Source: a virus (Duplodnaviria > Caudoviricetes). From it: a stretch of DNA of 64,000 nt. The stretch is taken from positions 1-64,000 of IMG/VR virus record IMGVR_UViG_3300028624_000004. The stretch is one strand, 5' to 3'. Positions within the stretch are counted from its first letter, which is position 1, and each line of letters starts with the position of its first letter. The notes under the pieces are model-generated. The model worked only from the letters and a program-made list of their open reading frames with translations, was not told where the DNA came from and ran no database searches. Below are positions 5,037 through 64,000 of this stretch, in pieces. The translations under genes and the position numbers were made by a program.

Positions 5037-6374
5037 TCAATTGGTTTTGTTTTTAATAGAGGATATTAAGTTTATGATATACTCTTCACTTGACGCAAGT
5101 GTTTTAGATTCGGGGGCATATCTAAACTTTTCGAACCAAGGAACTATCTGCCCAGGTTTTTCCACATGCTTAGCGTATTGGCAAAAGAATTTATTGAGCA
5201 TTTCTCTAATCGTATAAACATCCGGTGACACGAGGTTGGTAAAGGTTGGAAGGTCTTGTAAGAAAGAAAGATTGTCAAACAGCCAATCGGCTATGACATT
5301 GACATGTGTTGGACCAACAAATATACTTGGATCGTGAGTAACTTCTCCGAACTTGTTGACATTTTTGCTTATCTTTTGAATTATGTTGTTTACGTCATCT
5401 AGTTCGCTTGTAAACAAATTAGCAACTCTCAAAACCTTAACATGCCTCTGTTTCTTAGATCCAGAATTAAGAGATTCGTTTACTATTTCTTCATATAATT
5501 TTTTAGATACAGTATATGGACTAAGATGAACATTGGGGGCTTCTTTAAAAACTTCTTTCAGTTCTTGGTAGATATAATCTGACGAGAAGTGAACAAGCTT
5601 CATTCCACGGCTACCCGTATATTCACCAAGGAGGAAAGGTAAATCAGAATTAGCCCAAAGAAGATTTGGATCCTTCTTTGATGCTTCTTGGACATTGGTG
5701 ACACCGATGCAGTTTATAATAACAACCTCGGACGCCTTGGTATGTTCAGTTGCTTTCTGTATTCCATCCAGCATCTTTATTATTTCGGTTGAATTCTTAA
5801 TGCGATGATAAAGAGGAATTACTTCGTAGTCATATTCGCCCATGTTTAAAAGAAGCTTCTCTGCTACCGCCGATCCTAACCTACCGTTAGCTCCCAATAC
5901 TACATATACTTTCTTACCGCTGAGTCTATTTTCATGTCTTATCTCGTCTGTTTGTCCCTTCTTGCCTTCGCCCATAAATAACGAGGTTGGATAGTTTAGA
6001 GTTGCTGATGGCTTATCATCTAGGTTGCGATAAGCATGGAGGATTCCTGGCTTAACAGAGACATTTATTATCTTAGTAGGGTCTGTCATATAATAAGCAG
6101 ATTTCTTGCTTGCTGTATCATAAAACATATAACACATATGATTCTTCCAAGAAACAAATTCATCTCGCTGGGCTACATGTTCATGGGGTCCACGCATGAT
6201 ATATGGCTCAGTCTCACTAATGTAACACATCTTTGAGTCGCTGTTTATATCAGAGTCGGTTCTGAAAGTTTCGCATACCATTCCGCGAGAATCGTTATAT
6301 GTCTTTAATGACCTTATAATAACCCCACCATCAAAAAATGATTGTATTATTTCATAGTTGATAGTTTTATCCAT
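5037..6374 (-). CDS. rmlCD: Fused dTDP-4-dehydrorhamnose 3,5-epimerase (RmlC) and reductase (RmlD)
   Basis: Cupin motifs DSRG..ETF, MRGPH, GILHAY, followed by SDR motifs GANGRLG, HFSSDY and YTVSK (YxxxK). Confidence 0.88.
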   Translation of the reverse strand: MDKTINYEIIQSFFDGGVIIRSLKTYNDSRGMVCETFRTDSDINSDSKMCYISETEPYIMRGPHEHVAQRDEFVSWKNHMCYMFYDTASKKSAYYMTDPTKIINVSVKPGILHAYRNLDDKPSATLNYPTSLFMGEGKKGQTDEIRHENRLSGKKVYVVLGANGRLGSAVAEKLLLNMGEYDYEVIPLYHRIKNSTEIIKMLDGIQKATEHTKASEVVIINCIGVTNVQEASKKDPNLLWANSDLPFLLGEYTGSRGMKLVHFSSDYIYQELKEVFKEAPNVHLSPYTVSKKLYEEIVNESLNSGSKKQRHVKVLRVANLFTSELDDVNNIIQKISKNVNKFGEVTHDPSIFVGPTHVNVIADWLFDNLSFLQDLPTFTNLVSPDVYTIREMLNKFFCQYAKHVEKPGQIVPWFEKFRYAPESKTLASSEEYIINLISSIKNKTN

Positions 6375-6408
6375 TTTAGCCTCTGTAGTATTATACAGAG
6401 GAAATGAA

Positions 6409-7230
6409 TTATTTCTTCTTTAATAAAGAAGCTTCTTTTTCAATTTTTTCTCTTATTTTCTTCTTGTAACTCTTTACGTGGTCAACCATGGTGCCATCAA
6501 CATACTTTAACATATGGTCGCCAAACCCCTTTATATTCTTCTTTATAGGCTCAATTCCCTCAATGGTCTGCTTAAGACTGTTATGATCCTTGAACCAGTA
6601 GCGGAGAGCTACCGCACCATAGATGATTGCTGCTAACATCGCAATTCCAATGATGTAGGGAACGAGTTCAAGAAGCCATGCTATTGTTCCGAGAGCCTGG
6701 GCTACAAACAACATTATACCAGCGATAGCTCCGAGAATAATTGATGCCTTTGTAGCGACTGGACGAAGAAGTGGGAATCCAAAGGCAATCCCGCCCGCAA
6801 ATATAGCTAAAAGCCCACATATACCAGCCATCCACCAGAGCTTTATCTTCCAAGCATCTAGCTTAGCTTCTTTTAGCTCCTTTTCCTTTTCTTCTTTTTG
6901 TAGCATATAAGATTCTGCATTTTGCTTCCATTCTCTTGAATATGCTTCTGCGAGTTGAACTTTTATAGCGAGAGATTCTTTTTCGGAAGAAAGTCTTTCA
7001 ATGGTAGCTCCATTAGCAGCAGCTTCGGCTGCTTTCTTTTCAGATTCTTCTAGCTTCTTTTTAAGTGACTCGATATTTTGCTCACCCGGAGTCTGCGTCT
7101 TCTCTGGTGTTGGTACATTGGTAGCTACTGTTTTTTCTGGGGAGACATTATTGTTATTGTCTTTTCGACTGTCACCATCGCAACTAAATAAAGCTAAAAT
7201 TGCGATGCCTAAAATTATCTCTTTAAACAT
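6409..7230 (-). CDS. Late-expressed lipoprotein with coiled coil and about 3 TM helices (possible lysis protein)
   Basis: Signal peptide with lipobox LFSC, E/K/A-rich helix, three hydrophobic segments, basic C-tail; TATAAATA at 7249-7256 (-). Confidence 0.6.
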   Translation of the reverse strand: MFKEIILGIAILALFSCDGDSRKDNNNNVSPEKTVATNVPTPEKTQTPGEQNIESLKKKLEESEKKAAEAAANGATIERLSSEKESLAIKVQLAEAYSREWKQNAESYMLQKEEKEKELKEAKLDAWKIKLWWMAGICGLLAIFAGGIAFGFPLLRPVATKASIILGAIAGIMLFVAQALGTIAWLLELVPYIIGIAMLAAIIYGAVALRYWFKDHNSLKQTIEGIEPIKKNIKGFGDHMLKYVDGTMVDHVKSYKKKIREKIEKEASLLKKK

Positions 7231-7238
7231 AACTCCCC

Positions 7239-8225
7239 CTATACAGGGTATTTATAATTTACATAATAATCAATAGACGAGACAAATTCATCTTTTATAT
7301 TGCCATATACATATTCGACAGACGGTTGAATGGCATACATCTTGTCATGTCCCTTTCTGTCCTCTATATATTCTACAGTGGTATCTATGTTATGATTGTC
7401 CTTAAGTATTCCTCTCCACATATCGACTACTTCGTTGTTAGTTAAAAGAGACTGCGATGCGCCTAGATGAATGGTTGTGTTGTTAACTTTATCATCCATT
7501 AAAATATTATATATGTGCTTGACCGTCTGACTTACTGGAGTCCATTGTCTTATATTTTTTCCTTCGCCGTAAATTTTTATAGGCAATCCACCTACAGCCC
7601 TTTTTATTGTTGCTGGTAACATCTTTTCATGATGTTGGTGAGGTCCGAATTGATTAGCCATTCGAACAGTTACTACATTAAGACCAAAAGTGTGATTCAT
7701 TGATCTTAGGTAACAATCCTGGGCAGCCTTACTTGCGGCATATGGGTTATTAGGCAAAAAAGGAGAGTCTGGTTTAAACCACTTTGAATAATCATCTTTT
7801 AAATTGTAGTCTAAGTCGCCATATACTTCATCGGTACTTATATGGACAAATTTACTTATATTTTCTTTTCCTGCCCATGATATAAGATTGGATACTATAC
7901 ATGCGTTATCGTTATATATAGAGTATGGCGACGATATGCTATTATCCACATGGGACTCAGAGGCAAAATTTACTATATCAAATTCGGAGTTTTTAACTTT
8001 GTTTGGAATTGGAAATGCGTAAAGATTATTAATATTCATTTCAATATTAATAAATTTCTCACTGGTTGCGGTAAGTCTATAATACTCGGATTTGTTATTT
8101 TTAGTAGCGTATCCCATCTTGTCAATAAATATAACATTTTCATAACCTCTTAAGGGCAAGAAATGTTTTACAAAATTGAATCCTATGAATCCGGCACCAC
8201 CAGTTATTATCAGTATTTTTTTCAT
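7239..8225 (-). CDS. rmlB: dTDP-glucose 4,6-dehydratase
   Basis: TGGAGFIG, NFASESHVDNSI, HISTDEVYG, PYAASKA, DRKGHD. Start trimmed to MKKILII. Confidence 0.95.
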   Translation of the reverse strand: MKKILIITGGAGFIGFNFVKHFLPLRGYENVIFIDKMGYATKNNKSEYYRLTATSEKFINIEMNINNLYAFPIPNKVKNSEFDIVNFASESHVDNSISSPYSIYNDNACIVSNLISWAGKENISKFVHISTDEVYGDLDYNLKDDYSKWFKPDSPFLPNNPYAASKAAQDCYLRSMNHTFGLNVVTVRMANQFGPHQHHEKMLPATIKRAVGGLPIKIYGEGKNIRQWTPVSQTVKHIYNILMDDKVNNTTIHLGASQSLLTNNEVVDMWRGILKDNHNIDTTVEYIEDRKGHDKMYAIQPSVEYVYGNIKDEFVSSIDYYVNYKYPV

Positions 8226-8241
8226 TTCATAATTATACCAT

Positions 8242-8275
8242 AAAATAAAACCACCCACGGAGATTCCGTAGGTGG
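8242..8275 (-). terminator. Rho-independent terminator after gp32
   Basis: Minus strand reads CCACCTACGGA-ATC-TCCGTGGGTGG then TTTTATTTT (11-bp stem, one G-U pair). Confidence 0.8.
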
Positions 8276-8341
8276 TGTGAGCCAACGCAGCCCAACTTTA
8301 GCAACGGTGAAAGGAAACCGAAAATCCGCTGCTGTTATATT

Positions 8342-9310
8342 TTAGAACGGAGGTTCGCCATCATCGAAATTGATTTTGTCTATATCAATTTCATCTTCAG
8401 GTGGCTTACCAGCGGGCTTAGGTTTTGACACTGGCTTTACTGGGGCTTCACCAACCTCTACTAAAGAAGCATCTGGTTCGACTTTTCGCTCGACCTGTCG
8501 TGGAGAATCAGAGTCACGCAAAAGAGTCTGAGAAGATCCAGCACGAACATCTTCAATCTTCTTTCCTTCGAGGATAGCCTTGAGTTCATCGTAAGGGCGA
8601 ACCTTCTGTTCGAGAACCGTCTTGCGAAGATCATAAATCTTTTCGTGAATTGCGTCCAAGGTTTCATCATCTTCAACTAAACGGCTCTTTTCGCGAGCAA
8701 AATCGCTTGAGTCAAAGTTATTGAAGCCACCGACCTTCTTGATAACAAGGTTAAAGTCATATCCTTCCTCGACATCCCAGAAGAACATCTTATGCATGGT
8801 AAGAGCTTCAGAAAGCTTGTCCATGACTTTTGGACCGAATTCCCAAATCAAAACCTTTCCGGTCTGATTTGCTTCTCCCTTACGAGGGTCTGACTTGACA
8901 TACACATTTACATGCCAACGCTTCTTTCTCCAGAATGTGCGACCAATATCTTCACTGGTCTTGTCGCCCTTGGCGAACCACATCTTTGAATGCTCGCAAA
9001 TTGGACACTTAGCCTTTTCATCATGCGTGGACGGGCAAATCTGATAAGTATTCTTTTCAGATCCCTTGGGCTTGAAGATGTGGACTCTGTTTTCTACCCA
9101 AGGCTCATCAACGCCGTCGTTGACATGAACATTTGGAAGTATTCTTATTTGATATACCGAACGCGCTTCGCCCTTTACTATATCAGGCTGAAATTTGTAG
9201 TCGAACTTCTTTTCTTCGACTGCTGGCTTCTTTGCGCCTTCTTTCTTTTCTATGAACCTCTGACGAAGTTCTTCAAATTGTGATTTGGTGGTTGTTGCGA
9301 ATTTACTCAT
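8342..9310 (-). CDS. 32: ssDNA-binding protein (gp32)
   Basis: IRILP, CPS...CPICE zinc site, GKVLIWEFG, GYDFNL, NFDSSDF and an acidic tail; late promoter at 9444-9451 (-). Confidence 0.92.
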   Translation of the reverse strand: MSKFATTTKSQFEELRQRFIEKKEGAKKPAVEEKKFDYKFQPDIVKGEARSVYQIRILPNVHVNDGVDEPWVENRVHIFKPKGSEKNTYQICPSTHDEKAKCPICEHSKMWFAKGDKTSEDIGRTFWRKKRWHVNVYVKSDPRKGEANQTGKVLIWEFGPKVMDKLSEALTMHKMFFWDVEEGYDFNLVIKKVGGFNNFDSSDFAREKSRLVEDDETLDAIHEKIYDLRKTVLEQKVRPYDELKAILEGKKIEDVRAGSSQTLLRDSDSPRQVERKVEPDASLVEVGEAPVKPVSKPKPAGKPPEDEIDIDKINFDDGEPPF

Positions 9311-9446
9311 AGTTTTTTCCTTCTTGTTTTATTATCTTTTGTTTTTTCTATTAGTCAAACTCTAAGTTACTTACTAAGATTCTAATTTGACTTCTAAAAT
9401 TCTTCTATGTACTTATGATGGAGGACCGCCCTCCAACCTTTTATAT

Positions 9447-15663: not shown

Positions 15664-16716
15664 TTACTTTTCGTATATTGATTTATATAAACCGATATTA
15701 GATTCGGACTCTAGCCATCTTTTGTCTAGCTCTACCTTGCCTGCATTTAGAGTCGATTGCCAAGTCGCATCATCCTTATAATGTTTCATTATAGCTGAAT
15801 ACCACATATCGACTTTATTTTCAATAGTGCATGTATTTGGTATGATATCATATGGTCCAATTTTATTTCCTATAGACGATGCTATTGTTGGAATGCCCAA
15901 GGCAGAATATTCCAGTAATTTAAGGTCGCTTTTTCCGTAGTTAAACTGGATGTCGGTTATTGGGGAAATTGCTATATCAGCATCAATAGAATCTAATCTT
16001 GCAGCATAGTCATAAATGTTGGACCATTCATGGTATTCTATCATACCTTCCAAGTCAAATGGCTTACATCCAAAAAATACCCACTGTATTTCCTTGTGTG
16101 TTTTCTTTATTAGTGGTATAAGGAACTCTAAGTCGCCTCCTTTGCCTAAGTGTGAGGCAGATCCAGCCCATAGCACTCTTGGTCTATTATTAGCGTCTTT
16201 CTTCCTCTTATCTCTCTTTCCGCACCCATACCACATATGTTTAGGTAAAAAGTTAGGAATTACCACGGAATTCTTTATTCCAAAATTATCATCGTAATAT
16301 CTCTTTAGATAATTCGTAGAGAAAGTAACAATATCACTCATGTTAAATATTTCAACAAGATTGTTCTTTCTCGTAGGTGTATAGAACTGGTAAGCCATTA
16401 TATTATTTGGCATGATGCCATGAACAAGATCGTCAAGTTCATATGCTATTTTACCTTTAGGGTTATGTTTCTTTAATTGCAGCTTGTATTGATGCATTAT
16501 CTTTTTTTGGGCTTCCGTTACTTGTCTCTGGAATCGTATCCAATTAGCCCTTCTTATATAATTCATGTCATAGAAGAAAGCATAAAACTCAGATATATGA
16601 AATTCGGGGTATTTTGTTGCTAAATACCTAAATGGAAGGAATGTTCTATAAAACCCACATCCGTTCTTGTCTGATGGAAAAAGAAGGAGCGACTTTGGTG
16701 GGACTTTATTTTGCAT
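15664..16716 (-). CDS. Glycosyltransferase (GT-B/GT4-like)
   Basis: GCGFYR, YELDDL, VIPNFLP, WAGSASH, DIAISP...FNYGKSDLKLLEYSALGIPTIAS. ATG 16716 has a GGAG SD. Confidence 0.85.
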   Translation of the reverse strand: MQNKVPPKSLLLFPSDKNGCGFYRTFLPFRYLATKYPEFHISEFYAFFYDMNYIRRANWIRFQRQVTEAQKKIMHQYKLQLKKHNPKGKIAYELDDLVHGIMPNNIMAYQFYTPTRKNNLVEIFNMSDIVTFSTNYLKRYYDDNFGIKNSVVIPNFLPKHMWYGCGKRDKRKKDANNRPRVLWAGSASHLGKGGDLEFLIPLIKKTHKEIQWVFFGCKPFDLEGMIEYHEWSNIYDYAARLDSIDADIAISPITDIQFNYGKSDLKLLEYSALGIPTIASSIGNKIGPYDIIPNTCTIENKVDMWYSAIMKHYKDDATWQSTLNAGKVELDKRWLESESNIGLYKSIYEK

Positions 16717-21249: not shown

Positions 21250-22692
21250 TCAAGGAACTCTTATTATTTCCGGTAATTTATTGTTGCTATTTTTTCTATT
21301 AATAACTATAAAAATAACGGGAATAAAAAGATTTTCACGACTTAGAAACATGGCAGTAGTAGTCTTAAAATATGGGAATGTTTTTGACCATTTTTTAAAT
21401 AATTTTATACCACTTTCAACAAATGCGTCTGCGTGACCGCCTGATAAATTGCCCTGACCATCTGAAAGGTGATGACAATCAGCATCTATAGCGAAATTTT
21501 TATACCCCATAGATAATGCCTGTAAGCATATGTCTGCGCCGTACCAATGGTAGTGATCAAATGTTTCTTGATCAAATCTAAAAGGAGAGTCTTTTCTCAT
21601 TATCAGCGATAACTCATCAATAGTTTGAACTTCTCTGTAGTTTCCATAAACTTCACGGTATATAGCTGCATAAGACTTTTTTGAGTTTTTCGTTAAATCC
21701 GACAGATAGAGAGCATTTCCGTCTTTATCAGGCGTAAACTCACTACTATACTTATAAGCCCCAGCCATTCCTAATATACCCCATCTTATTCTATTCTTAG
21801 CAAAATTTGTTACATGATTCAGAATACCTTCTACCCATGCTCCATTTACTCTTAAATCTTGATGACAGAGATTAACTATAACACCATCGGCTAAATCTAA
21901 TGCTATATTAAGTGGCTCAGCACATCCCGTAAACTCGTTGTTGAAATTGGGAACTGCTATTATTTCAAATTTATAATCTGTTCTCTGTGATAGAAGATCA
22001 GAAAGAAAATCCTTATACTGTAATTCATTATTAACTAAAGTGGCTATTGTAAAATGAACGTCTTTTTTAACTCTAAAATTTAATATATCTTTCTTCAGAG
22101 ATTCTTTATTTAAATCACTAATAACAAATGGACAAGGAAGCGATATTTTATTATTAAACGAATACCTAGCTATAAAGGTTATAAAATCATAATCAAATAA
22201 AACATTATCGCTTATACTCAAAAGCAGATGTGTTTCTTTAGTTTTATAATTAGGATCGTCCACAAATATTACATTTGTATATTTTGTAGTAGTTAATATC
22301 TTATTCTTATATTCTTCTTTGTTAGATCCGTTAATGGCAATATATATTGGTGGTTTTTTACCCCTTGGGTATCTTGTAACGTAATTTATAGACTCTGTAA
22401 TGTTTGTTATATTCGAGTCTAAAATAGGTTTCTCTTGTAATCTCATGGCATATTCACTTGAATTTGAGTTTGCGTTTATAAAAGCCCGAAGCTTATGCAT
22501 CGGGTTAGCTTTTAAAAACTTCGGCATATGTTTTACATGTTTATCATAGTCTAGGTCGGTTACTTCTTTTAATGCTCTGTAATTTTTCAAATTATCTGGT
22601 CCCTCGACAATCGACCCTGCTGGAATTGAAATCCTTCTACCTTTCATTAAGATATTAATTTCCCTATCACTTATATTTCTAAATTTAGCCAT
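21250..22692 (-). CDS. Glycosyltransferase (GT-A/GT2-like C-terminal domain)
   Basis: NLCHQDL (DxD-like), GILGMAG, VQTIDEL, FDQETFDHYHWYGADICLQA...CHHLSDG. Confidence 0.82.
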   Translation of the reverse strand: MAKFRNISDREINILMKGRRISIPAGSIVEGPDNLKNYRALKEVTDLDYDKHVKHMPKFLKANPMHKLRAFINANSNSSEYAMRLQEKPILDSNITNITESINYVTRYPRGKKPPIYIAINGSNKEEYKNKILTTTKYTNVIFVDDPNYKTKETHLLLSISDNVLFDYDFITFIARYSFNNKISLPCPFVISDLNKESLKKDILNFRVKKDVHFTIATLVNNELQYKDFLSDLLSQRTDYKFEIIAVPNFNNEFTGCAEPLNIALDLADGVIVNLCHQDLRVNGAWVEGILNHVTNFAKNRIRWGILGMAGAYKYSSEFTPDKDGNALYLSDLTKNSKKSYAAIYREVYGNYREVQTIDELSLIMRKDSPFRFDQETFDHYHWYGADICLQALSMGYKNFAIDADCHHLSDGQGNLSGGHADAFVESGIKLFKKWSKTFPYFKTTTAMFLSRENLFIPVIFIVINRKNSNNKLPEIIRVP

Positions 22693-42701: not shown

Positions 42702-45700
42702 ATACTTTATGTATAATTACTTTCTTCAGTAATGTAATATATCAACACGTAGTCGCTCTTTCTGATGTGTTCAATGAGATGTCCATCATCAACTATGATA
42801 AGGACGGAAAAGCTATTGGATGGAAGCCAGTTCCATTGACCCTTGCGCCAAAAGAAAAGGTAATAGCAGAACTTCAGGCAGATCCAAGTTCACCAGACTC
42901 AACTCCACCAAACTTCCTCCCAAGAATGTCGCTTATTTGGAACGGAATATCCAGAAACCAAGAGAGACAGAGGGGAAAATACGAAAAACGTCGTATATTA
43001 GTTGAATATATGGAAGACCCCGAAACTGGCGAGCAAGAGGAAGCTGCCATTCGTGATGTTCAAACTGTTCCTTACGATTTAACATTTGAGCTTACTGTAT
43101 GGACCAAGTATATGACAGATATGGCTCAGATACTTGAAAACATTCTACCGTTCTTCAATCCAGAAGCGCATGTTTCTCTCTATGAGCGCGGTATAGGATC
43201 CGAAAGAAAAGTCAAAGTAACCCTCGAATCAACCTCTCCTAATTTTGTTACCGACATTTCAGAACCAGAAAGAAGAATTTTACAGTGTAATTTGCAGTTC
43301 AGAATGGAGTGTAACTTCTATACTCCACAGCTACCAATATCTAAGATGATTAAGAGAGTTACTACTCGTATGGGTATTGACTCTACTAAAAACGGAGCAT
43401 CTGAACCAACCGTAGAGGGCGAAACCGTAAATACATTCCTATTGGAATCGGTCACTGGATGTAATAGCTTCCTCGACATGGATCCAAAGATTTGGGGATG
43501 TGTTGTTTCGTTTGACGATATTGAATCTGATTATATGGGTTGGGAACATCACAATGACTTAGACCCACAAAACAAAGTACCACCAACCCCAAGTACGATT
43601 GTTAATCCAAATGAAATTGTATATCCAAATCCACCAGGATATCTTTACAATATACCAAATGATGATTTGACACGCGGACAGCAATGCGCGGTTGACCCAG
43701 AAAAAATACCATTTAAGTTGATTATCGACACTGAAATAACCGAAGCAATATCACAAACAAATCAGTTTATCCTCACTCTTGATGGGACAACTGATGTAAG
43801 TGGTAATCCAGATTATCTTTATAACTTCAATATAAATTGGGGAGACGAAACCGAAGAGACAGTAACGAATTTCACAGATAATTTCGTTAGAGAATCACCA
43901 ACATCGTCTAGAGCAAGAGTTACTCATACATATTCTGTTCCGGGCGTTTATATTATATCAATTACTCCAAACGGCGAAGAAGGTTTCCCAACCTTAAGAT
44001 TTAATGATTTAAGTGTGCAAAGTGGACCTATTGTTACTGATGCTAGGAAAGTTTTGTTCTTACAGCAATGGGGAACAGGAATATGGAAAACAATGTACGG
44101 TGCCTTTGCAGGGTGTGCGAATATGAAAATCATTGCGCCGGATTCAGGAACGGCAAGAACTGAAAATGTAACAGATTGGGACAGAGCATTTGCTTTCTGT
44201 CGGTCTATGACGCATTTCCCAGGAAACTTAAGAATGGGTTCTGGGGAAATATTCACCAGTTGTTGGAATGGATGCAGAGAATTAAAAGAAATACCAAAAA
44301 CTCTTGACTTCTCAAAGGGAAGACAATTCTCATATGCTTGGAACGGTTGCCGTGCAGTTACAGAGTTCCCAAATACATTTGATTTCAGTAATTCTGAAAG
44401 TTTCCAAGGTGCTTGGGGTGGAATGTATATTGAAAGCTTCCCGCTTATCAACTTGGGACCAGCAACAACTTATACTGCCGCGTGGCAAAGTTGTATATAT
44501 TTAAAGTCGTTCCCCTCCCTGGATCTATCAAACGCCACTAGAGTCGATAACGCATGGTGGGATTGTGAATCTCTTACTGAGTTTCCACTAGTAAACACTG
44601 AAAACGTTACTAATTTCAACAGAGCATGGAATGGATGCTTCCGTTTAACAAAAATGGCACCGCTAAATCTTTCAAAGCTAACAACTGGAAACGGGTCATT
44701 CTGGGGATGCTCGGCATTAGTAGATCATCCAGATTATATAATGCCAACTACATCATCTTCAATAAATTTTGGAAATTTATTTAGGCAATCCGGAATCTCA
44801 AGACCAGAGTATGATAACTTCCTTATAAGGTTAGAAGCAGTAAATCCATTAAATAAAGGATCAATAAGTCAAACTCCTGTCAAGTATACCGCTGGACCAG
44901 CATCAATAGCTAGAAGTAAACTAGCATCTAGAGGTTGGTCAATTGCTGACGGCGGACTTGAAAGTGGATTTAGAATAACCATTAACACAAACAACGCTGG
45001 ATCACCAAGTGACCAGTTTATTTTACCGCTAGATCCATTAAGCACCTATAACTTCTCTATTCTGTGGGGCGATAACACCGGAGAATTTATAACTAATACC
45101 ACAACTGGATTCCCAAACATATCTCATACATACACCACTCCGGGAACATATACAATAACCATAACAGAAATGGAAGTTGGTGGTTTCCCAACAATATACT
45201 TTAATAACAGCGGCGATAGATTAAAGATAACAGGAATAACCCAATGGGGAATTAATGAATGGATGTCATTGAATTCTTCTTTCTATGGGTGCAGTAATTT
45301 AAATATTACAGCTACAGATTTCTCGACAGCAAAATTCTCTATGGTCAGCAACGCAGAAAGCGCATTCAGGGATTGCACAAGTCTTGTAACACTTAATTCC
45401 TACAACTGGAATCAAATAACCAATTTACAAAATGCATTTAGTGGTTGCACTTCGCTGACAACAGTGGGAGCATCATTAAATCTATCAATGGCACAAAATC
45501 TGATGGCTATGTTTAATGGAGCAACATCACTCGTAACATTCCCCGTCATAAGCTTACCATCAATGACAAATGGGGCTAATATGTTTAATGGTGTAACGCT
45601 CTCCACTACATCGTATAGTAATCTTCTTATTTCTTTGGATTCTGTTAATAATAACACTGGTGTCACATTCCACGGAGGAAACTCTTTGTATAATGTCGGA

Positions 45701-45769
45701 TCAGCAGCATCAAGAAATAATCTTACTTCGGTGAAGTTGTGGGACATAACAGACGGCGGTCCAGCATAA
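42647..45769 (+). CDS. 15: Tail terminator gp15 fused to two PKD-like + DUF285/BspA-like repeat modules (true start uncertain)
   Basis: VPLTLAPKEK, LPRMS, VPYDL.FEL, QILENILPFFNP; then INWGD...HTY..PG.Y.I.I and F..C..L repeats, each module ending W.I.DGG. Confidence 0.85.
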   Translation: MVLAEDRGYFKFCYERRVNTLCIITFFSNVIYQHVVALSDVFNEMSIINYDKDGKAIGWKPVPLTLAPKEKVIAELQADPSSPDSTPPNFLPRMSLIWNGISRNQERQRGKYEKRRILVEYMEDPETGEQEEAAIRDVQTVPYDLTFELTVWTKYMTDMAQILENILPFFNPEAHVSLYERGIGSERKVKVTLESTSPNFVTDISEPERRILQCNLQFRMECNFYTPQLPISKMIKRVTTRMGIDSTKNGASEPTVEGETVNTFLLESVTGCNSFLDMDPKIWGCVVSFDDIESDYMGWEHHNDLDPQNKVPPTPSTIVNPNEIVYPNPPGYLYNIPNDDLTRGQQCAVDPEKIPFKLIIDTEITEAISQTNQFILTLDGTTDVSGNPDYLYNFNINWGDETEETVTNFTDNFVRESPTSSRARVTHTYSVPGVYIISITPNGEEGFPTLRFNDLSVQSGPIVTDARKVLFLQQWGTGIWKTMYGAFAGCANMKIIAPDSGTARTENVTDWDRAFAFCRSMTHFPGNLRMGSGEIFTSCWNGCRELKEIPKTLDFSKGRQFSYAWNGCRAVTEFPNTFDFSNSESFQGAWGGMYIESFPLINLGPATTYTAAWQSCIYLKSFPSLDLSNATRVDNAWWDCESLTEFPLVNTENVTNFNRAWNGCFRLTKMAPLNLSKLTTGNGSFWGCSALVDHPDYIMPTTSSSINFGNLFRQSGISRPEYDNFLIRLEAVNPLNKGSISQTPVKYTAGPASIARSKLASRGWSIADGGLESGFRITINTNNAGSPSDQFILPLDPLSTYNFSILWGDNTGEFITNTTTGFPNISHTYTTPGTYTITITEMEVGGFPTIYFNNSGDRLKITGITQWGINEWMSLNSSFYGCSNLNITATDFSTAKFSMVSNAESAFRDCTSLVTLNSYNWNQITNLQNAFSGCTSLTTVGASLNLSMAQNLMAMFNGATSLVTFPVISLPSMTNGANMFNGVTLSTTSYSNLLISLDSVNNNTGVTFHGGNSLYNVGSAASRNNLTSVKLWDITDGGPA

Positions 45770-56336: not shown

Positions 56337-56786
56337 ATGGCTAATAAAAGAACCACTATCGTTTCGGATTCTCTTTTTTCTAACTTGTTTCCCAAGTTAC
56401 ACTATGATCCTGTGGAGATATCTGAACCAATTTTAGATATTTGGTCATCTTTTAGACTTCAGTTGAGTCCACCAGAGTTATCGGACGAGGCATATATAAA
56501 ACATTCGGTTACACCAACAGATACACTATATTCCATTTCTAATCAATATTATAAAACAATAGAATTGTGGTGGTTTATTGCTTTAATGAACGATGCGATT
56601 GATCCGTATACATTTCTAGAAGATGTCTTAGATGGGACATGGAATGGTCCTGGCAATCCAAAGATTATAAAAATAATGCGCCCCGATTACCTTCCAAAAA
56701 TAAAACGAGACATGCTGTTCTTTAAGTCACTAAACGAGGAACAAAATAGAAAACTGGCTCTTGAGGGAAGAGCATCGGAAGCATAA
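56337..56786 (+). CDS. 53: Baseplate wedge gp53-like (LysM)
   Basis: DTLYSISNQYY...LWWFIALMN...DP. Confidence 0.82.
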   Translation: MANKRTTIVSDSLFSNLFPKLHYDPVEISEPILDIWSSFRLQLSPPELSDEAYIKHSVTPTDTLYSISNQYYKTIELWWFIALMNDAIDPYTFLEDVLDGTWNGPGNPKIIKIMRPDYLPKIKRDMLFFKSLNEEQNRKLALEGRASEA

Positions 56787-56789
56787 ACC

Positions 56790-58217
56790 ATGGTAGATAT
56801 AGATACAACCAACTCTCAAACAAACCCATTTGATTCGGTTCTTAGAGCCGCTTATGCAGTTTATATAACTCGCCTAAAGTCTTTTAAAGATCAGTCTTAT
56901 AATGATCTTAGCGAAAGCACTATATTAGAAACAGCATTTAAGATAGAAATTCAAGATTCAATGGATATGTATTTTCGCACGGCGAAAGTGTGGTTCTTTG
57001 ATAGGTATTCAATAAGAGAAATCATGCCACTTACTGGTAATGAAATAGTAACTATTAAGTATAAAAATATGGCGCAGCCGTCTGCGACCGTTGAAAAAAT
57101 AATGCACTTTCAGATTCAGTCAATATCCGAAATTCCAAATCTTCAAGAATACAATAAGGGATCAAATATAACTTTAATGAATCTTGTAGAGGCTCCTGCA
57201 TTTAGTTTCTTAACAAATAACTGTGTTTATAAGACATATCCTTGGGATACGAAGATGAAGGTGTCAGACCTTGTAAACGACTGTTTATTATCTGTTCCTG
57301 GGTTGGTAAATTGGTATGATATAGATATAGAAGAAACATCAAATGCAGAAGGAGCTAAGTTTAGATTCTATAATCCAAACTGGACGCCGATGAAGACAAT
57401 AAATTATTTGAAAAAGTTTGCTATTAGCCAGAAAGACGACTTCCCATACTATACCTTTTTTATAGAACCACCAAAGACCAAATCAGGAAAACCAAAAATA
57501 CACTTCAAACCAGTCTACAAGTATATGACAGAAAAAGGAAGACATACAATATCATCCCACTTTCAACAAGAAGTTTATAGGTCTGCCCAAGGTGATTTAA
57601 ACAATTTAGCAAGAGACTTCTCGAAAGAAAACGATTACGAAATATTCAACACAATGCAGAGTAGACAATTTGATTATTTCCATAGGGCTAAAACTGCATT
57701 CGCGCAGATGAGCGGAGAAACTTTCTATACATTTGATTATATAAATGATAATAAGTATTTTGCTCTGGATTACTCTACATTTAAAAACACATATCAGGGT
57801 CTTGGTCAGAAGCAACTCCATTCGATGAATTATGGTAATCAGTGGGCATCTCATAGACCACATTCTTTTACAGATAATCTTAGATTACTGAACATGAAGC
57901 GAAATGAGATGGCTTACAACACTATTCATTCTGGAATCGCATGTACGGCTGAGATGACTATTAATAACTTTCGTAACGTTGGTCACTTGGCAGATGTAAT
58001 ATTTAAGACATCTCTGGATCAGAATTCTGGCGTTGATTATATGATGTCTGGGCTGTGGTTGATATGGGGACAAACAGACGAAATGCAGGACGGTGCCGCT
58101 CGTTCTAAAGTTATTATGGTTAAGGATGGATTCGAGCAACTTATGATTAATCCAGATTTACCAACAATGACACATCTGAATCCTCCGATTGAAATATCAA
58201 AAACCAAAGCATCGTAA
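56790..58217 (+). CDS. Baseplate hub gp27-like
   Basis: IEIQDSM, PLTGNE.V.I, PNWTPMKTINYL, MSGLWLI, KDG. Confidence 0.7.
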   Translation: MVDIDTTNSQTNPFDSVLRAAYAVYITRLKSFKDQSYNDLSESTILETAFKIEIQDSMDMYFRTAKVWFFDRYSIREIMPLTGNEIVTIKYKNMAQPSATVEKIMHFQIQSISEIPNLQEYNKGSNITLMNLVEAPAFSFLTNNCVYKTYPWDTKMKVSDLVNDCLLSVPGLVNWYDIDIEETSNAEGAKFRFYNPNWTPMKTINYLKKFAISQKDDFPYYTFFIEPPKTKSGKPKIHFKPVYKYMTEKGRHTISSHFQQEVYRSAQGDLNNLARDFSKENDYEIFNTMQSRQFDYFHRAKTAFAQMSGETFYTFDYINDNKYFALDYSTFKNTYQGLGQKQLHSMNYGNQWASHRPHSFTDNLRLLNMKRNEMAYNTIHSGIACTAEMTINNFRNVGHLADVIFKTSLDQNSGVDYMMSGLWLIWGQTDEMQDGAARSKVIMVKDGFEQLMINPDLPTMTHLNPPIEISKTKAS

Positions 58218-58492: not shown

Positions 58493-58898
58493 TCAACCAG
58501 CAGATTTCTTTTGTGGCGATACAGTAGTCATTCAGGCTACTAATAAGCCACTTATCGACATGACTATAGCTCCCTCGTTGAACGACTATAAGTGGGCAGA
58601 CGAAGCTATTATTCGTATATACGACCCCCGCAACACTCTTATAGTTGACTCGCCCATGTGTCAAGTTACTGGAAAAGTGGGATGGTATTACTATAGATAC
58701 AAAACCGTCTGTGAATGTGGAATAGGTATATTCCGTGTTGAAGTTGTTATGAGAACAACTGTAGCCACATGTATAACACCAAGCACTTCGGCTGTTGATA
58801 CAACAGGAACCAGTGGAACAAGCGGCGACCCAGGAACCGAAGTATGTGAAGACATACAGGTGAGCTACTTCAGAGTTATGTCTAAAGAGAGATTCTAA
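58485..58898 (+). CDS. Small beta-rich structural protein with Ser/Thr-rich loop
   Basis: GDTVVI...IRIYDP...GWYYY...G.FRVEV Ig-like pattern with a TPSTSAVDTTGTSGTSG insert. Confidence 0.55.
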   Translation: MSNQPADFFCGDTVVIQATNKPLIDMTIAPSLNDYKWADEAIIRIYDPRNTLIVDSPMCQVTGKVGWYYYRYKTVCECGIGIFRVEVVMRTTVATCITPSTSAVDTTGTSGTSGDPGTEVCEDIQVSYFRVMSKERF

Positions 58899-59995
58899 TG
58901 GTCCCCCGACATTTTAAAATAACCAATGACTTAATAGATGCTAATGTATCTAAAAGAGGCATAAAGCGATTATTTGATGTAGCTGATGTGAAATACTCTG
59001 AAAGGGGTAAATGGTCTTGTCTAAAGTGTGGTAAAGAATGGGAAGCTACTATTAATAGTGTTTATGCTGGTGGAACAGGTTGTCCAGCATGTCGTCCAAA
59101 GACTGGCAGGAAAGACAATAAGTGGGTTGATGATAAACTATACGGTAGAAATATTATTAGATTAGGTGAGTATGTCAATTCAACTACTGCAATTGAGTGG
59201 AAGTGCTTGAAGTGTAATAATATATGGAGCAATATTCCCGTAAGCGTAATACATGCGAAAGTAGGATGTCCGACATGTAGCGGGGTTAAAAGATATACAT
59301 TAGAATCTATTAAGGATTTTATGGGTGAGAGGGGCATATCGGTAATAAGTAATATATACCCGGGTTCCAATAAAAGTATGGATTTAAAGTGCAATGTTTG
59401 TAATCATACCTTCAGGAATAGTTTTTCTAATATAAAATCACAAGACCAAAAATGCCCTAGATGTGTAGGGTTGGATAGCATGTGCGATACTGAAATAGAC
59501 TCGATTTTAGCAGAAGAAAAGAGAGAAATACAAAGAATAGGAAGTTCTATTGGTGACATGCATAAAATAACTTGGAAATGTATAAAATGCGAACACGAGT
59601 GGATTGCTACGCCCCGTAGTGTAATTACATTGAATAGCACATGCCCATGTTGCGGCATGTTAGGGACATCAAGGAAAGAAAACGCTTGGCTAGATTCTAT
59701 TGGCATACCGCCAGAGTATAGAAGATATAAGACAGATGTAAAAAACAAGAAACACTATATACGGGTTGATGGCTTTAATCCAGATACTAAAACCTGTTAC
59801 GAGTTTTATGGTGATTTCTGGCATGGCAACCCGCATAGATATAATCCAAATGAGGTAAATGTTGTAGCAAAGAAAACCTATCAGCAACTATATGAAGAAA
59901 CTATGAGTAGGGAGAATAAGTTGAGAGAATCTGGTTATAATATAGTAACAATATGGGAAACTGATTGGAACAAAGGAGTATCAAATGGGATGTAA
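58898..59995 (+). mobile_element. Free-standing endonuclease with four Zn-ribbon repeats and Vsr-like domain
   Basis: Repeated CxxC..W/F...CPxC units; VDG...YEFYGDFWHGNP...GYNIVTIWE. Confidence 0.8.
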
Positions 59996-60626: not shown

Positions 60627-60628
60627 TC

Positions 60629-60829
60629 GTGAGCTACGAAACAGCATGTCGTAAGTATCCTTGTGACAAGCGGGATAAAGATCCTCATCCATGTAACTGT
60701 CAGACGGATGTCGAAGCTGCGAAGACTAACAACTTGTTTTGGTGTCATCTTCAGGCTCGTAATGTCAATCTAATAATATGTCGAGACTGTAACTATAGAG
60801 AAAACAGGTTCGGTCCACCTAATCCGTAA
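60629..60829 (+). CDS. Small Cys-rich hypothetical protein
   Basis: 66 aa with 7 Cys, packed within the late operon. Confidence 0.5.
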   Translation: MSYETACRKYPCDKRDKDPHPCNCQTDVEAAKTNNLFWCHLQARNVNLIICRDCNYRENRFGPPNP

Positions 60830-60863
60830 TTTTATATAAATAACGGATATAATAGGTGAAACT

Positions 60864-62036
60864 ATGAAATCCAATCTCCAAATATACTTAGAGTCACGCC
60901 TTAAGACCATTTTAGAGGCTGATGGTGACGAAAAGCCAGCAGAAGACGCACCAACAGAGAAGCCAGCGGAAGACGAAGAATCTAAAGAAGCCGAAGATGC
61001 TGACGAAGACTTTTTCACCCAAGATGAAGTCGATGCTGCTAAGGGCGGTGATGCAGAAGAAGCCCCAGAAGGCAATGAAGAGCCATCTGACGAAGATCCA
61101 GAAGATAAGGCTGGTCCAGGCATGGCAGGAGCCGGATCCGGTGTATCCGACGATGAGAAGATGCGCCAGCTATTCACCGAAACAGGCGACCCAGAAGTGG
61201 ATTTCGGTTTAACCTCAGAAGCAAATGTTCGTTTGGCTAAGTTTAAGTTCAAGAACGCCAATATAGACCCACTCACAATGATGGATGATATGGAGTTGAC
61301 GGAAGGAGTTCGTGTAGATGAACTTGAGTCTCGTTTAACTCCCGACCAATATGATCTATATCGTAACAAGTGGAAGGAAATACGCCGTGACTTCCCCAAG
61401 ATAGCAGAGAGAGAACAAAAGGTAGTCATCTACAATTCAAACATTCCATTCTTTTATAACGATGAAGATGGAAACGTAGTGGCTATAGATCACAAAAGAG
61501 ATATAAACACTGCTATAGACAAGCTTAACAAATACATGATTAGAAACTTCACGGAAGATTGGGTTGATAACAAGAAAGCAGTCAAGTTTCTCCAAGGCAT
61601 TCGTATAAACTTCTCAGACGAACCAAAGATTCGACCTAACCTTATTTCGGCTAAGTTCTTTGAAGAGTATGAAGACCGCGACCTTGTTCCGTTCAACAAG
61701 CTCCACGCAGACATTCCAGAATCCGTTCGCAAGTTCCTGAAAGATAATTTGGATATGGACGAATTCAAGAAGTCTTCTGTTTTCCGCACACTCTCCAATG
61801 ATTATGTTGGAGAAAACTCTGGATCCTCCCGCACATCGGTATACGCCGTCATCAAGGGAGATGAAGCTCCTGAAGGAGCAGAAGGAGCAGACGGAGCGGG
61901 AGATACTGGCGAGGACATGGGAGACATGGGAGATATTGGGGGCGACTCTGAAGAAGACACCGAAGCCGATACCACAGACACAGGAGACGAAGCTGAAGAA
62001 TCTGGTGACACTGGCGAGGAAGACTTAGGACTATAA
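60864..62036 (+). CDS. Late protein with acidic low-complexity termini
   Basis: Late promoter at 60835-60842; D/E/G-rich N- and C-regions around a globular core. Confidence 0.7.
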   Translation: MKSNLQIYLESRLKTILEADGDEKPAEDAPTEKPAEDEESKEAEDADEDFFTQDEVDAAKGGDAEEAPEGNEEPSDEDPEDKAGPGMAGAGSGVSDDEKMRQLFTETGDPEVDFGLTSEANVRLAKFKFKNANIDPLTMMDDMELTEGVRVDELESRLTPDQYDLYRNKWKEIRRDFPKIAEREQKVVIYNSNIPFFYNDEDGNVVAIDHKRDINTAIDKLNKYMIRNFTEDWVDNKKAVKFLQGIRINFSDEPKIRPNLISAKFFEEYEDRDLVPFNKLHADIPESVRKFLKDNLDMDEFKKSSVFRTLSNDYVGENSGSSRTSVYAVIKGDEAPEGAEGADGAGDTGEDMGDMGDIGGDSEEDTEADTTDTGDEAEESGDTGEEDLGL

Positions 62037-62039
62037 TTC

Positions 62040-64000
62040 ATGGCACTACGGGGACGCGCTTCACAATCCCGTTACGGAACTAACGCAACAGGAATAGATG
62101 CTTCGATAGAGTTGGAAAGACTCATTCAAAAGTCGTGTCCATCAAAGAAGATTGTCAAAAAACAAGTTCCTGGGTGTGTAAGGTCGCCCGTTGCCAAGAC
62201 GCATACCCCCATTCTAGACCGCGTAAATATTAAAAGATTTCCTATGGGGTTGATTGATATATCCCAGTCAATAGAATGTGATGTGCCATTTCCGTGTGAA
62301 GAACAATTTTATTGTGTAAAAATACTCGAAAGGGAAAGAGTAAGCTCATCCAGTTCTTCCAGCAGTTCCAGCAGTTCAAGCAGTTCAAGTAGCTCGTCAA
62401 GTTCCTCTTCAAGTAGCAGTTCGAGTAGCTCGTCAAGCTCTTCTTCTTCTTCTTCTTCTTCTTCAAGTTCCTCGTCAAGTAGCTCCAGTAGCTCAAATAT
62501 TTCTTCTTCAAGTAGCTCTTCAAGTTCTTCTTCAGCCGCTCCTGCATTGTTCTGTTGGTATTTCTATAATGCTACATACGATTGCGATACTGGATTATGG
62601 ACACAAGGAACTGCGTCTGCCGTATGCGATTCGGAAGATTATGGGGAAACTGATTGGATTCTTGATGACCCAGAGGCAGATCCGTGCCACGCTGTGAAGA
62701 TCGTCAAGGGTCCAGCATGCACTGTTCAGTTTGGTGAAGAATGCACAGCACCTGTCATACCTGACCCAACTAACCCACCTCTTGAACCAGATCCTCTCTG
62801 CTGCCCAAGTTCCTCGTCAAGTAGCTCCAGTAGCTCCAGTAGCTCGTCAAGCAGCTCTTCCAGTTCCTCGTCAAGTAGCTCCAGTAGCTCGTCCAGTTCT
62901 AGTAGTTCATCTGCTGTGGAATATTGTAATTGCACGTATGAATCATACTATTATTGCGAAACTGGTTGGGGGCTGCCATATGAATTCCCAGATTCTGAAA
63001 ATAATTGTGTGACTAGTTCAACTGATGAAAGTTATACTTGGGCATACTTATATGAAAATCATTGTTATGCTCAGACAGTAGTGTCTGTTGTGGGTAACTG
63101 TAACGATGTCCAACCAACCCCACCAGAAACACCAACAATAGATCCGGGTCCAAATTGCTGCATCAGTTCCTCTTCAAGTAGCTCATCTAGCTCATCTAGC
63201 TCATCAAGTAGCTCAAGTAGCTCTTCAAGCTCGTCAAGTTCTTCGAGTTCCAGTTCAAGTAGCTCATCTAGTTCCTCATCAAGTTCTTCACCGGAACCAC
63301 TACCAACATGCTGTGGAATAAATTTCTGGGCTACGGCAGAATGTTATTACGATGAAGAAACCGGAGAGGAATTTTACTGGAACGAACCAACATATGATCC
63401 AGAGTATCCTTATTCTACTTGTATCACGCTTGAACCTGGACAGACATGTGAATCTGCTGGATATGTATCATATGACTGGACAGTTACAGAAGGTAACGAT
63501 TGTGAAATAATATCAAAATGCTATTACGATAATACATGTATTGATGGTGATCTTGGATGTGTGGGTGACGGGTCGCCAAACGGACCATGTAACGGCACCA
63601 AGCCAGAGATATCTTTATCATGCAAAAACCAAATTAGTTGCGCCCCAAGTAGCTCGTCAAGTTCTTCGAGTAGCTCCAGTAGCTCCATTTCTTCGAGTAG
63701 ATCGTCAAGTAGCTCCAGTAGCTCTTCAAGTAGCTCGTCAAGTTCTTCGAGTAGCTCCAGTAGCTCGTCAAGTTCTTCGTCAAGTAGCTCGTCAAGCAGC
63801 TCTTCAAGTCCGTCCACCACAGGAACATGCTATCAGGTATGGCATTACGATTATTCACTAGTTTACTTATATTCTTCAACATGTGAAGGTAGTTGTACAC
63901 CATCCGAATGGACGTGTATTTATGATCCAGAATCTTCTATGTTCATTATGGAGAAAATTGTTTGTGGTTCATTATGTTCTGATGATCTAGATTGCGTAGA
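62040..64000 (+). CDS. Mucin-like protein: poly-serine tracts alternating with Cys-rich modules (runs off the window)
   Basis: Not in the ORF track. Manual translation from ATG 62040 (MALRGRASQSRY...) stays open to 64000. Ser tracts are at 62343-62534, 62808-62912, 63165-63290 and 63648-63809. Confidence 0.88.
   Translation, partial: MALRGRASQSRYGTNATGIDASIELERLIQKSCPSKKIVKKQVPGCVRSPVAKTHTPILDRVNIKRFPMGLIDISQSIECDVPFPCEEQFYCVKILERERVSSSSSSSSSSSSSSSSSSSSSSSSSSSSSSSSSSSSSSSSSSSSSSSSSSSNISSSSSSSSSSSAAPALFCWYFYNATYDCDTGLWTQGTASAVCDSEDYGETDWILDDPEADPCHAVKIVKGPACTVQFGEECTAPVIPDPTNPPLEPDPLCCPSSSSSSSSSSSSSSSSSSSSSSSSSSSSSSSSSSSAVEYCNCTYESYYYCETGWGLPYEFPDSENNCVTSSTDESYTWAYLYENHCYAQTVVSVVGNCNDVQPTPPETPTIDPGPNCCISSSSSSSSSSSSSSSSSSSSSSSSSSSSSSSSSSSSSSSSSSPEPLPTCCGINFWATAECYYDEETGEEFYWNEPTYDPEYPYSTCITLEPGQTCESAGYVSYDWTVTEGNDCEIISKCYYDNTCIDGDLGCVGDGSPNGPCNGTKPEISLSCKNQISCAPSSSSSSSSSSSSSISSSRSSSSSSSSSSSSSSSSSSSSSSSSSSSSSSSSSSSSPSTTGTCYQVWHYDYSLVYLYSSTCEGSCTPSEWTCIYDPESSMFIMEKIVCGSLCSDDLDCV

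Follow-up and report, generated by a model that had tools for sequence, protein, structure and literature searches.

We analysed the first 64,000 nucleotides (hereafter the window) of the IMG/VR record IMGVR_UViG_3300028624_000004, from an uncultured phage. The window holds genes for sugar-nucleotide synthesis, two glycosyltransferases (GTs) and, in a late operon, a protein with long polyserine tracts, which together could form a phage-encoded system for protein O-glycosylation. It covers the first third of a 177,540-bp record whose completeness is estimated at 76%, with about 24% of the genome missing. Homologues of gp32, gp43, gp44, gp45, gp46/47, gp55, UvsW, portal, gp23, gp15, gp18 and gp19 mark the phage as a very divergent T4-like myovirus, as the original prediction, made from the DNA letters, had held. 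The nearest cultured phage by major capsid protein is a cyanophage, with only 35% identity, and the DNA at 5037–9310 showed no similarity to any of 50,697 cultured phage records. Clamp loader, clamp, gp32, DNA polymerase and UvsW are encoded on the minus strand, and gp55 and gp46/47 on the plus strand. The virion module (portal, scaffold, capsid, adaptors, gp15, terminase, sheath, tube, tape measure and baseplate) runs on the plus strand from 24.8 kb. The sugar genes and the two GTs of the replication region, with one gene from beyond the window, are as follows.

5037–6374, minus strand: fusion of a cupin (residues ~12–136) with an RmlD-like short-chain dehydrogenase/reductase (SDR; residues ~155–400), carrying GxxGxxG and YxxxK
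7239–8225, minus strand: RmlB-like nucleoside diphosphate (NDP)-glucose 4,6-dehydratase, an extended SDR
15664–16716, minus strand: soluble GT of the GT-B fold, GT4-like, between DNA polymerase and gp55
21250–22692, minus strand: GT of the GT-A fold, active domain at residues ~218–400, with a conserved N-terminal head of 45 amino acids (aa)
105478–106248, beyond the window: RmlA-like gene (PF00483, 146.6 bits, over the cut-off)

The 7239–8225 protein clearly met the Pfam extended-SDR families, and its best NCBIfam model was TIGR01181 (dTDP-glucose 4,6-dehydratase), at 219 bits against an equivalog cut-off of 365; the RmlB that had been predicted is thus borne out as an RmlB-like dehydratase. 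The prediction also read 5037–6374 as a fused RmlC–RmlD, of which the fusion and the RmlD-like half stood. PF04321 (RmlD_sub_bind) matched residues ~158–367 with 50 bits against a cut-off of 27, RmlD was the top PDB profile match of the SDR half (E = 6e-13), and both sequence motifs are kept; TIGR01214 gave 36.5 bits against a cut-off of 224. The N-terminal cupin turned out to be of the CapF type. It matched the CapF/WbjC-type family PF14667 and the cupins of Staphylococcus aureus CapF (Cap5F) and of WbjC, and the RmlC family PF00908 had no match at E ≤ 0.01 in 5037–6374 or in the whole 177-kb genome. A profile of six phage homologues aligned with Cap5F over both the SDR (159–397) and the cupin (26–136), with E values of 1.6e-8 to 2.5e-8. 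One distant cupin–SDR homologue matched PF00908 as well as PF14667, which indicates that the two cupin folds are related. From its domains, the fusion protein very probably converts an NDP-4-keto-6-deoxyhexose to a 6-deoxyhexose, as a predicted epimerase/4-reductase.

RmlA was correctly predicted to be missing from the window, and the genome supplies an RmlA-like gene elsewhere, at 105478–106248, which has a good ribosome-binding site and overlaps the preceding gene at GTGA. Its best NCBIfam models, rmlA_long and rmlA, scored 174–178 bits against equivalog cut-offs of 320–360. RmlA-like, RmlB-like and cupin plus RmlD-like genes therefore all lie in one genome.

The prediction of two GTs of different folds was confirmed, with a GT-B at 15664–16716 and a GT-A at 21250–22692. 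The AlphaFold2 model of the GT-B protein reached a pLDDT of 94, and its top Foldseek matches were the GT4 enzymes BshA, MshA, glycogen synthase and PimA; SdgB (7EC1) and GtfC of Limosilactobacillus (9HTX, from a serine-rich-repeat-protein secretion system) ranked only 41–48 in the list. The GT-A domain (residues 218–400) matched PF13712 with 40 bits. Its best fold match was Majastridin (2QGI; TM-score 0.71–0.75), followed by generic GT-A enzymes, and the list included ppGalNAc-T2, COLGALT1 and the TDP-rhamnose enzyme RmlT. As pointers to an acceptor, these modelled neighbours (SdgB and GtfC for the GT-B; ppGalNAc-T2, COLGALT1 and RmlT for the GT-A) are weak hints. In the ESM Atlas, both proteins fell into generic GT clusters only.

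The candidate acceptors are encoded in a late operon beside the baseplate genes.

60864–62036, plus strand: acidic 390-aa protein, the conserved upstream partner of Ser-tract genes in relatives
62040–64247, plus strand: poly-Ser protein 1, 735 aa, 31% Ser, with an orphan N-terminal domain at residues 1–101
62343–62534, plus strand: Ser tract 1, 64 residues, 62 of them Ser
62808–62912, plus strand: Ser tract 2, 35 Ser, with the motif LCCP before
63165–63290, plus strand: Ser tract 3, 42 Ser, with NCCI before and PEPLPTCC after
63648–63809, plus strand: Ser tract 4, 13 and 36 Ser, split by ISSSR
64283–65914, plus strand: poly-Ser protein 2, a tandem paralogue that has only the first 101 residues in common with protein 1 (35% identity)

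Beyond the N-terminal domain, both poly-Ser proteins alternate acidic Cys-rich modules with Ser tracts. The tracts of protein 1 hold 188 Ser within the window, in line with the predicted figure of about 190 in four tracts from 62040 onward, and in the two proteins each tract spans 13–94 residues. All six Ser codons are used in the tracts of both genes. Simple triplet slippage was rejected as the origin of the tracts because the six codons are mixed and only imperfect higher-order repeats of 9–75 nt are present. The Ser-tract proteins have no signal peptide and no transmembrane segment. For the N-terminal domain, a word-indexed search came back empty and an exhaustive profile search of 1.8 billion representatives returned one 86-aa fragment; its profile had no match in relatives G001–G005, described below, and a Pfam DDHD match was spurious, caused by low complexity. 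Profiles of the 60864 protein and of the 360–470-aa N-terminal domain found in relatives gave nothing significant against PDB sequences.

Relatives, retrieved with a GT-B alignment and with the capsid protein as queries, were compared gene by gene: ten whole IMG/VR records of 41–332 kb (G001–G010) and a 12-kb stretch of a close relative (L006). Their major capsid proteins, where covered, are 54–88% identical to that of the studied phage, and the GC content of G006–G010 (whole records) ranges from 27 to 40%. Each of the six large relatives covering this region (G005–G010) keeps the order gp32, RmlB, cupin–SDR, with RmlB homologues of 42–50% identity adjoining gp32 and the cupin–SDR gene in synteny with both. 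The GT-B gene stands beside gp55 in G003 and G005–G010, the GT-A gene beside UvsW in G002, G003 and G005–G009, and RmlA-like genes occur in G001, G006, G008 and G009. In G005–G009 the GT-A homologues are 600–634 aa long and have two GT-A domains, the first of which is degenerate in the studied phage and in G002. Cupin–SDR homologues of the same architecture number at least 100, and many share their large contigs with members of the GT-B family. That family has at least 153 homologues (43–85% identity), many on contigs of 130–400 kb; the GT-B protein had no homologue in the 50,697 cultured-phage records. Within the same genomes, GT-B identity was 47–58% compared with 29–51% for the DNA polymerase. 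A GT-B about as conserved as the polymerase across phages of very different GC content suggests a conserved, phage-encoded acceptor, and the similar conservation of the cupin–SDR protein points the same way.

A Ser-tract protein was found in every relative whose contig covers the locus, which leaves out G003, G008 and G010. At the baseplate locus the gene forms a block with homologues of the genes at 60864 and 67288 in L006, G001, G002, G004, G005 and G009; it follows them directly in all of these except G005, and G009 has two copies in tandem. The Ser-tract proteins of G006 and G007 have an N-terminal domain of yet another, third kind and are encoded next to a collagen-like gene. The longest tract among the relatives is a single run of 154 Ser in G001. 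The N-terminal domains are conserved within sub-lineages: that of the studied phage is 90% identical in L006, whose protein differs in its distal modules and in how many tracts it has. Receptor-binding or decorative fibres show the same sequence pattern, a conserved N terminus with changing distal modules. The joint recurrence of rml, GT and poly-Ser genes, which had been proposed as a check, was seen wherever the eleven related contigs cover the regions; being clade-wide, it does not count as independent evidence.

A separate regularity concerns the tract borders. Cys-Cys motifs (CC, CxCC or CCxCC) flank at least 7 of 34 tract borders by a conservative automated count, against 0.7 expected, and 10–11 by eye. 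They recur across N-terminal domain families, in the studied phage, L034, L038, L043, L028, L111 and G006/G007. One idea is that they form an inter-chain disulfide knot.

Expression signals link the pathway with the candidate acceptors. The T4-type late motif TATAAATA has 36 copies genome-wide, 29 of which touch intergenic DNA (4.7% of the genome), and nearly all intergenic copies lie 5–40 nt upstream of a correctly oriented gene. Those that bear on the genes discussed here include the following.

60835–60842, plus strand: late promoter TATAAATA, 21 nt upstream of 60864, the head gene of the poly-Ser operon
7249–7256, minus strand: late promoter TATAAATA, 18 nt upstream of the open reading frame (ORF) at 6409–7230

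The promoter before 60864 agrees with the earlier assignment of the poly-Ser gene to a late operon. Relaxed copies of the motif precede poly-Ser gene 2 and the gene after it, and no convincing plus-strand terminator was found between 60.5 and 76 kb. Judging by its position, a transcript started at 7249–7256 would read on into the cupin–SDR gene, and a late motif also stands before the group of small genes that ends in RmlA. With late motifs ahead of some pathway genes and of the poly-Ser operon, late expression of the sugar pathway, in part or in full, alongside the candidate acceptors is probable.

Further GTs and a second class of fibre protein are encoded beyond the window.

67778–71254, plus strand: four-gene operon of a GT1 GT-B, a class I methyltransferase, a GT32-like DXD transferase and an FkbM methyltransferase
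80949–83105: fifth GT, 718 aa, GT1 family (PF00534 at residues 527–656, LAGLIDADG_3 at 258–338)
76203–77681, 94202–98500 and 100827–103802: three collagen-like fibre proteins with Gly-Ala-Thr triplets

The operon genes have overlapping stops and starts and begin, on the same strand, 1.9 kb downstream of poly-Ser gene 2; the GT1 gene (67778–68806) has no close relatives in IMG/VR. The fifth GT probably carries an intein or homing endonuclease, to judge from its domain matches, and is located among fibre genes. Operon and fifth GT both lie near the structural block, between the baseplate and poly-Ser genes and the fibre genes, and bring the genome total to five soluble GTs and two recognized methyltransferases. 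A gene at 74654, considered as a further methyltransferase, had no Pfam match and was rejected as such. The largest collagen-like protein has 1432 aa and ~330 Gly-X-Y triplets, and Thr fills the third position in 232 of these; the one at 100827–103802 also has an F5/8 type C (discoidin) domain. Long Gly-X-Thr arrays were found in none of the relatives compared, and the Gly-Ala-Thr fibres are a possible second acceptor candidate. The Ser/Thr/Pro-rich inserts reported earlier in several structural proteins proved weak: only three segments of 25–31 aa (residues 207–231 of the sheath, residues 816–840 of the gp15-like protein, and one in ORF 58560) passed a filter of 56% Ser, Thr and Pro. They give no support to the proposal that the phage coats its particle.

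Because the Ser tract is the one conserved acceptor candidate visible, we favour the reading that the phage O-glycosylates its own Ser-tract fibre proteins, and we put the chance of this at about even, with the sugar and the acceptor both argued from gene content. The system would be self-contained and cytoplasmic, and its acceptor a phage component, most likely the late-operon, fibre-like Ser-tract proteins beside the baseplate genes. The RmlA-like and RmlB-like enzymes (105478–106248 and 7239–8225) would make NDP-4-keto-6-deoxyglucose, probably as the dTDP form. The cupin–SDR fusion (5037–6374) would epimerize and reduce this to a 6-deoxyhexose donor, either L-rhamnose or an isomer such as 6-deoxy-L-talose. 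The soluble GT-B (15664–16716) could then add the first sugar to Ser, and the GT-A (21250–22692; a double GT-A in G005–G009) could lengthen the chain. In the studied phage, the 67778–71254 operon and the GT at 80949–83105 may elaborate the glycan and cap it with methyl groups. The Ser tracts would serve as mucin-like glycosylated spacers, with a conserved anchoring domain on one side and rapidly changing, Cys-rich distal modules on the other.

Several observations weigh against this reading. Every Rml-like protein scores below its NCBIfam equivalog cut-off and there is no canonical RmlC, which leaves room for a sugar other than L-rhamnose. The three sugar genes common to the lineage are placed among the replication genes, as are its two core GTs, on the same strand as early and middle genes, and the GT-B sits where T4 has its alpha-glucosyltransferase. 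Both GT folds are generic, with neither donor nor acceptor identified by the fold searches, and the closest GT-B structures (BshA, MshA and SenB) act on small molecules. Gene position and promoter are all that places the poly-Ser proteins in the virion, because their N-terminal domain is an orphan. Carbohydrate-active enzymes of bacteria contain pure poly-Ser linkers for which glycosylation is not proven. Blastp found no homologue of the four-gene operon or of the fifth GT in the ten whole relatives, and the operon lies in a variable region with a GMP reductase and a homing endonuclease, so its adjacency to the poly-Ser genes may be accidental. Last, the co-occurrence of the gene sets is clade-wide and not phylogenetically independent. 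The original prediction, that the phage makes its own nucleotide sugar and glycosylates its virion or fibres, is partly supported. It suits the wider evidence better than its rivals, given the full RmlA/RmlB/epimerase-reductase gene set, the late promoters, the GT/methyltransferase operon downstream of the poly-Ser genes, the recurrence of the gene set with Ser-tract proteins and the lack of a hydroxymethylase gene in 177 kb; the choice of rhamnose is less well backed, and the replication-module position of the conserved GTs speaks against it.

The same enzymes might instead remodel the host envelope, altering lipopolysaccharide, capsule or cell-wall glycans, for example to block superinfection or to prevent adsorption of progeny to debris, with poly-Ser as bare flexible linkers. 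T4-like cyanophages (P-SSM2, S-SCSM1 and S-SCSM2R) carry epimerases, RmlC and up to 13 GTs that are read as tools of cell-surface modification (PMC12801897). JGI names for the GT-B homologues are 'involved in cell wall biosynthesis' or 'O-antigen biosynthesis', and the wall-teichoic-acid enzymes RmlT and TarP appear in the GT-A fold list. The genome-specific operon of GT1, methyltransferase, GT32 and FkbM genes resembles a variable, host-matched set, and for the genome-specific GTs this explanation may well hold. For the system as a whole we consider it unlikely. All GTs are soluble, and no priming phosphotransferase, flippase, polymerase or ABC exporter was seen: a crude hydropathy scan of the 238 ORFs in 177 kb, run without a Pfam search for export families, found no protein with more than about four hydrophobic segments, which argues that no flippase, polymerase or priming transferase is encoded. 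The polymerase-like conservation of the GT-B and cupin–SDR proteins across phages of 27–40% GC is hard to fit to host-specific acceptors, and late promoters stand ahead of two groups of pathway genes.

Glycosylation of another cytoplasmic acceptor, such as a host or non-virion phage protein (EarP-type rhamnosylation) or a small molecule (a BshA- or MshA-type glycoside), with the Ser tracts left bare, would suit the top GT-B fold neighbours, which are the small-molecule GT4 enzymes BshA, MshA and SenB. The best GT-A neighbour, Majastridin, has no known acceptor, and the conserved GT genes lie ~40–45 kb from the Ser-tract genes. This explanation, which leaves unaccounted for the five GTs, the sugar methyltransferases and the late promoters as well as the placement of the GT/methyltransferase operon and the fifth GT inside fibre gene blocks, seems to us doubtful. 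Most improbable, in our estimate, is that the GTs place the phage-made sugar on modified DNA bases to evade restriction, as the map might suggest: the GT-B gene lies between polymerase and gp55, the GT-A gene by UvsW, and RmlB and the cupin–SDR gene between gp32 and gp45, on the replication strand. Diverse phage GTs are reported to glycosylate 5-hydroxymethylcytosine DNA (Pyle et al. 2024, as cited in PMC12619734). However, only one ThyA-family gene occurs in 177 kb, and it encodes a canonical thymidylate synthase (TIGR03284, 225 bits against a cut-off of 108), with only thymidylate synthases among its top PDB matches, a QWR motif and a dUMP-type Asn, where dCMP hydroxymethylases have Asp. Neither alpha-glucosyltransferase (PF11440) nor beta-glucosyltransferase (PF09198) had a match at E ≤ 0.01 in a search run without a positive control, and the two T4 enzymes were not among the 50 best GT-B fold matches listed. 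We know of no DNA sugar modification that uses dTDP-6-deoxyhexoses, which also counts against it. A hydroxymethylase could lie in the ~24% of the genome that is missing, and we therefore keep DNA as a target at a low level.

Self-glycosylation of the Ser-tract proteins was then compared with known systems. GT genes of mycobacteriophages adjoin structural genes; here the core GTs are grouped with replication genes, and the phage is a myovirus whose fibre-like proteins offer homopolymeric Ser tracts as candidate acceptors. Glycans have been demonstrated on the C termini of capsid and tail-tube subunits in the mycobacteriophages Che8, Corndog and Myrna (Freeman et al. 2023, as summarized in PMC12619734). 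The likeness lies in phage-encoded soluble GTs that would act, in the cytoplasm, on the phage's own structural proteins (PMC12619734). The mycobacteriophages have no sugar-nucleotide pathway of their own in this comparison, whereas the studied phage has a full Rml-like pathway, as predicted from its genes. Giant viruses reach rhamnose by a UDP-L-rhamnose route. In Mimivirus (fibrils) and PBCV-1 (capsid), the virus itself encodes the synthesis of nucleotide sugars (rhamnose among them), GTs with several domains and sugar methyltransferases, and it decorates surface fibrils; collagen-like proteins are found there as well (PMC9614988). Their hosts, in contrast, are eukaryotic, and the system described here belongs to a T4-like phage with RmlA- and RmlB-type enzymes and a cupin–SDR fusion, again as read from genes. 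For the exosporium glycoprotein BclA of Bacillus anthracis, Daubenspeck and colleagues are said to have described in 2004 a Gly-X-Thr collagen-like fibre that is O-glycosylated with rhamnose oligosaccharides made through rmlACBD. The 1432-aa Gly-X-Thr protein and the Rml-like genes recall this arrangement, but the collagen-like fibres of the phage are encoded beyond the window, without conservation in the relatives, and the feature found lineage-wide is the Ser tract, not Gly-X-Thr.

The enzymes that modify serine-rich-repeat and SD-repeat adhesins (GtfA/GtfB, GtfC and SdgA/SdgB) are likewise cytoplasmic, GT4-type GT-B enzymes acting on long Ser-rich repeats ahead of their export. The phage differs in having no GtfB partner, accessory Sec system, signal peptide or LPXTG motif, and in having tracts of pure poly-Ser, unlike the SxSx or SD repeats of the adhesins. 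By the membership tests run, the phage system is not a member of the mycobacteriophage, giant-virus, serine-rich-repeat adhesin or BclA-type systems, although it would follow the logic of the first two and its candidate acceptors recall those of the last two. S. aureus CapF (Cap5F) and Pseudomonas aeruginosa WbjC also combine a cupin and an SDR in one chain that acts on a 4-keto-6-deoxy sugar nucleotide. In the phage protein the order is reversed, with the cupin first, and the SDR half is nearer to RmlD than to CapF; the reversed order makes it an architectural analogue of CapF rather than an orthologue. Since the upstream enzymes are RmlA- and RmlB-like, its substrate is probably a dTDP-sugar and not one derived from UDP-N-acetylhexosamine. 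T4 also has GT-B enzymes among its replication genes (the alpha- and beta-glucosyltransferases), with the GT-B map position next to gene 55; the studied phage differs in lacking a hydroxymethylase or a match to those families in 177 kb, and its fold neighbours are GT4 enzymes. Bacterial carbohydrate-active enzymes of Saccharophagus, Teredinibacter and Cellvibrio have long pure poly-Ser spacers with mixed codons between globular modules. These are secreted enzymes, whereas the phage proteins have no signal peptide and carry orphan Cys-rich modules and Cys-Cys border motifs. The T4-like cyanophages P-SSM2, S-SCSM1 and S-SCSM2R share many GTs and NDP-sugar enzymes, including RmlC, as variable accessory genes (PMC12801897). 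Here, in contrast, the set is syntenic, conserved across the relatives compared and accompanied by Ser-tract proteins.

We extend the proposal, with somewhat less confidence than an even chance would warrant, to the whole lineage (genomes of 117–332 kb, and up to ~400 kb on GT-B contigs): these phages may build mucin-like fibres in which a GT4-like enzyme O-glycosylates a poly-Ser spacer with a phage-made 6-deoxyhexose, extended by genome-specific GTs and methyltransferases. Such a fibre might consist of a conserved anchor domain, a Cys-Cys 'knot', a poly-Ser spacer of 26–154 residues (or a longer Ser-rich one) and variable Cys-rich tips, a layout that we hold just as tentatively. To our knowledge, experiments have demonstrated glycosylated virions only for giant viruses and a few actinobacteriophages. 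If self-glycosylation of the Ser-tract proteins is true, it would give myoviruses their first self-encoded pathway for protein O-glycosylation that extends to making the donor, with homopolymeric serine as an acceptor of a new type. If it holds for a T4-like lineage that is common in metagenomes, those of wastewater among them, self-glycosylation would rank as a widespread trait of phages, with effects on host recognition, particle stability, adherence to mucus or biofilm and immune recognition. The phage-specific GT-B family (at least 153 members) and the cupin–SDR fusion (at least 100) would then be enzymes worth characterizing. Should the target be DNA or the host envelope, a modification based on a dTDP-deoxyhexose would still be new for T4-like phages.

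One further gene lies within the sugar locus, between the RmlB and cupin–SDR genes.

6409–7230, minus strand: conserved neighbour ORF with a lipobox signal peptide, a coiled coil and 3–4 transmembrane helices

A 53%-identical homologue stands at the same locus, beside the cupin–SDR gene, in G005. We rejected a role for this ORF as a glyco-enzyme, as its weak LptF/G matches reflect the transmembrane helices; it may be related to lysis or exclusion. Among the relatives, the ThyA-family genes of G006 (166330–167205) and G008 (56588–57526) are without QWR and are 25–29% identical to the thymidylate synthase of the studied phage; on these grounds they may not be plain thymidylate synthases.

Elsewhere in the structural module, the gp15-like sheath stabilizer (42647–45769) is 1040 aa long, against roughly 300–460 aa in relatives. 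Its extension has PKD and DUF285/BspA-LRR matches and may decorate the neck or collar. The portal of G001 (L035; 56046–59078) and of L009 (1579–4611) has 1010 aa compared with 565 aa here; only ~355 residues align in these two close relatives, which suggests an inserted element, for example an intein. Two free-standing homing-endonuclease genes are also present: a GIY-YIG gene (3330–4253) between the clamp-loader and clamp genes, and an HNH gene (58898–59995) between baseplate genes, which is missing from the 90–100%-identical relative L006. The variable region that separates the GT operon from the fibre genes includes a GMP reductase gene at 72213–73184 (NF003966, 390 bits, over the cut-off), with a homologue in G001.

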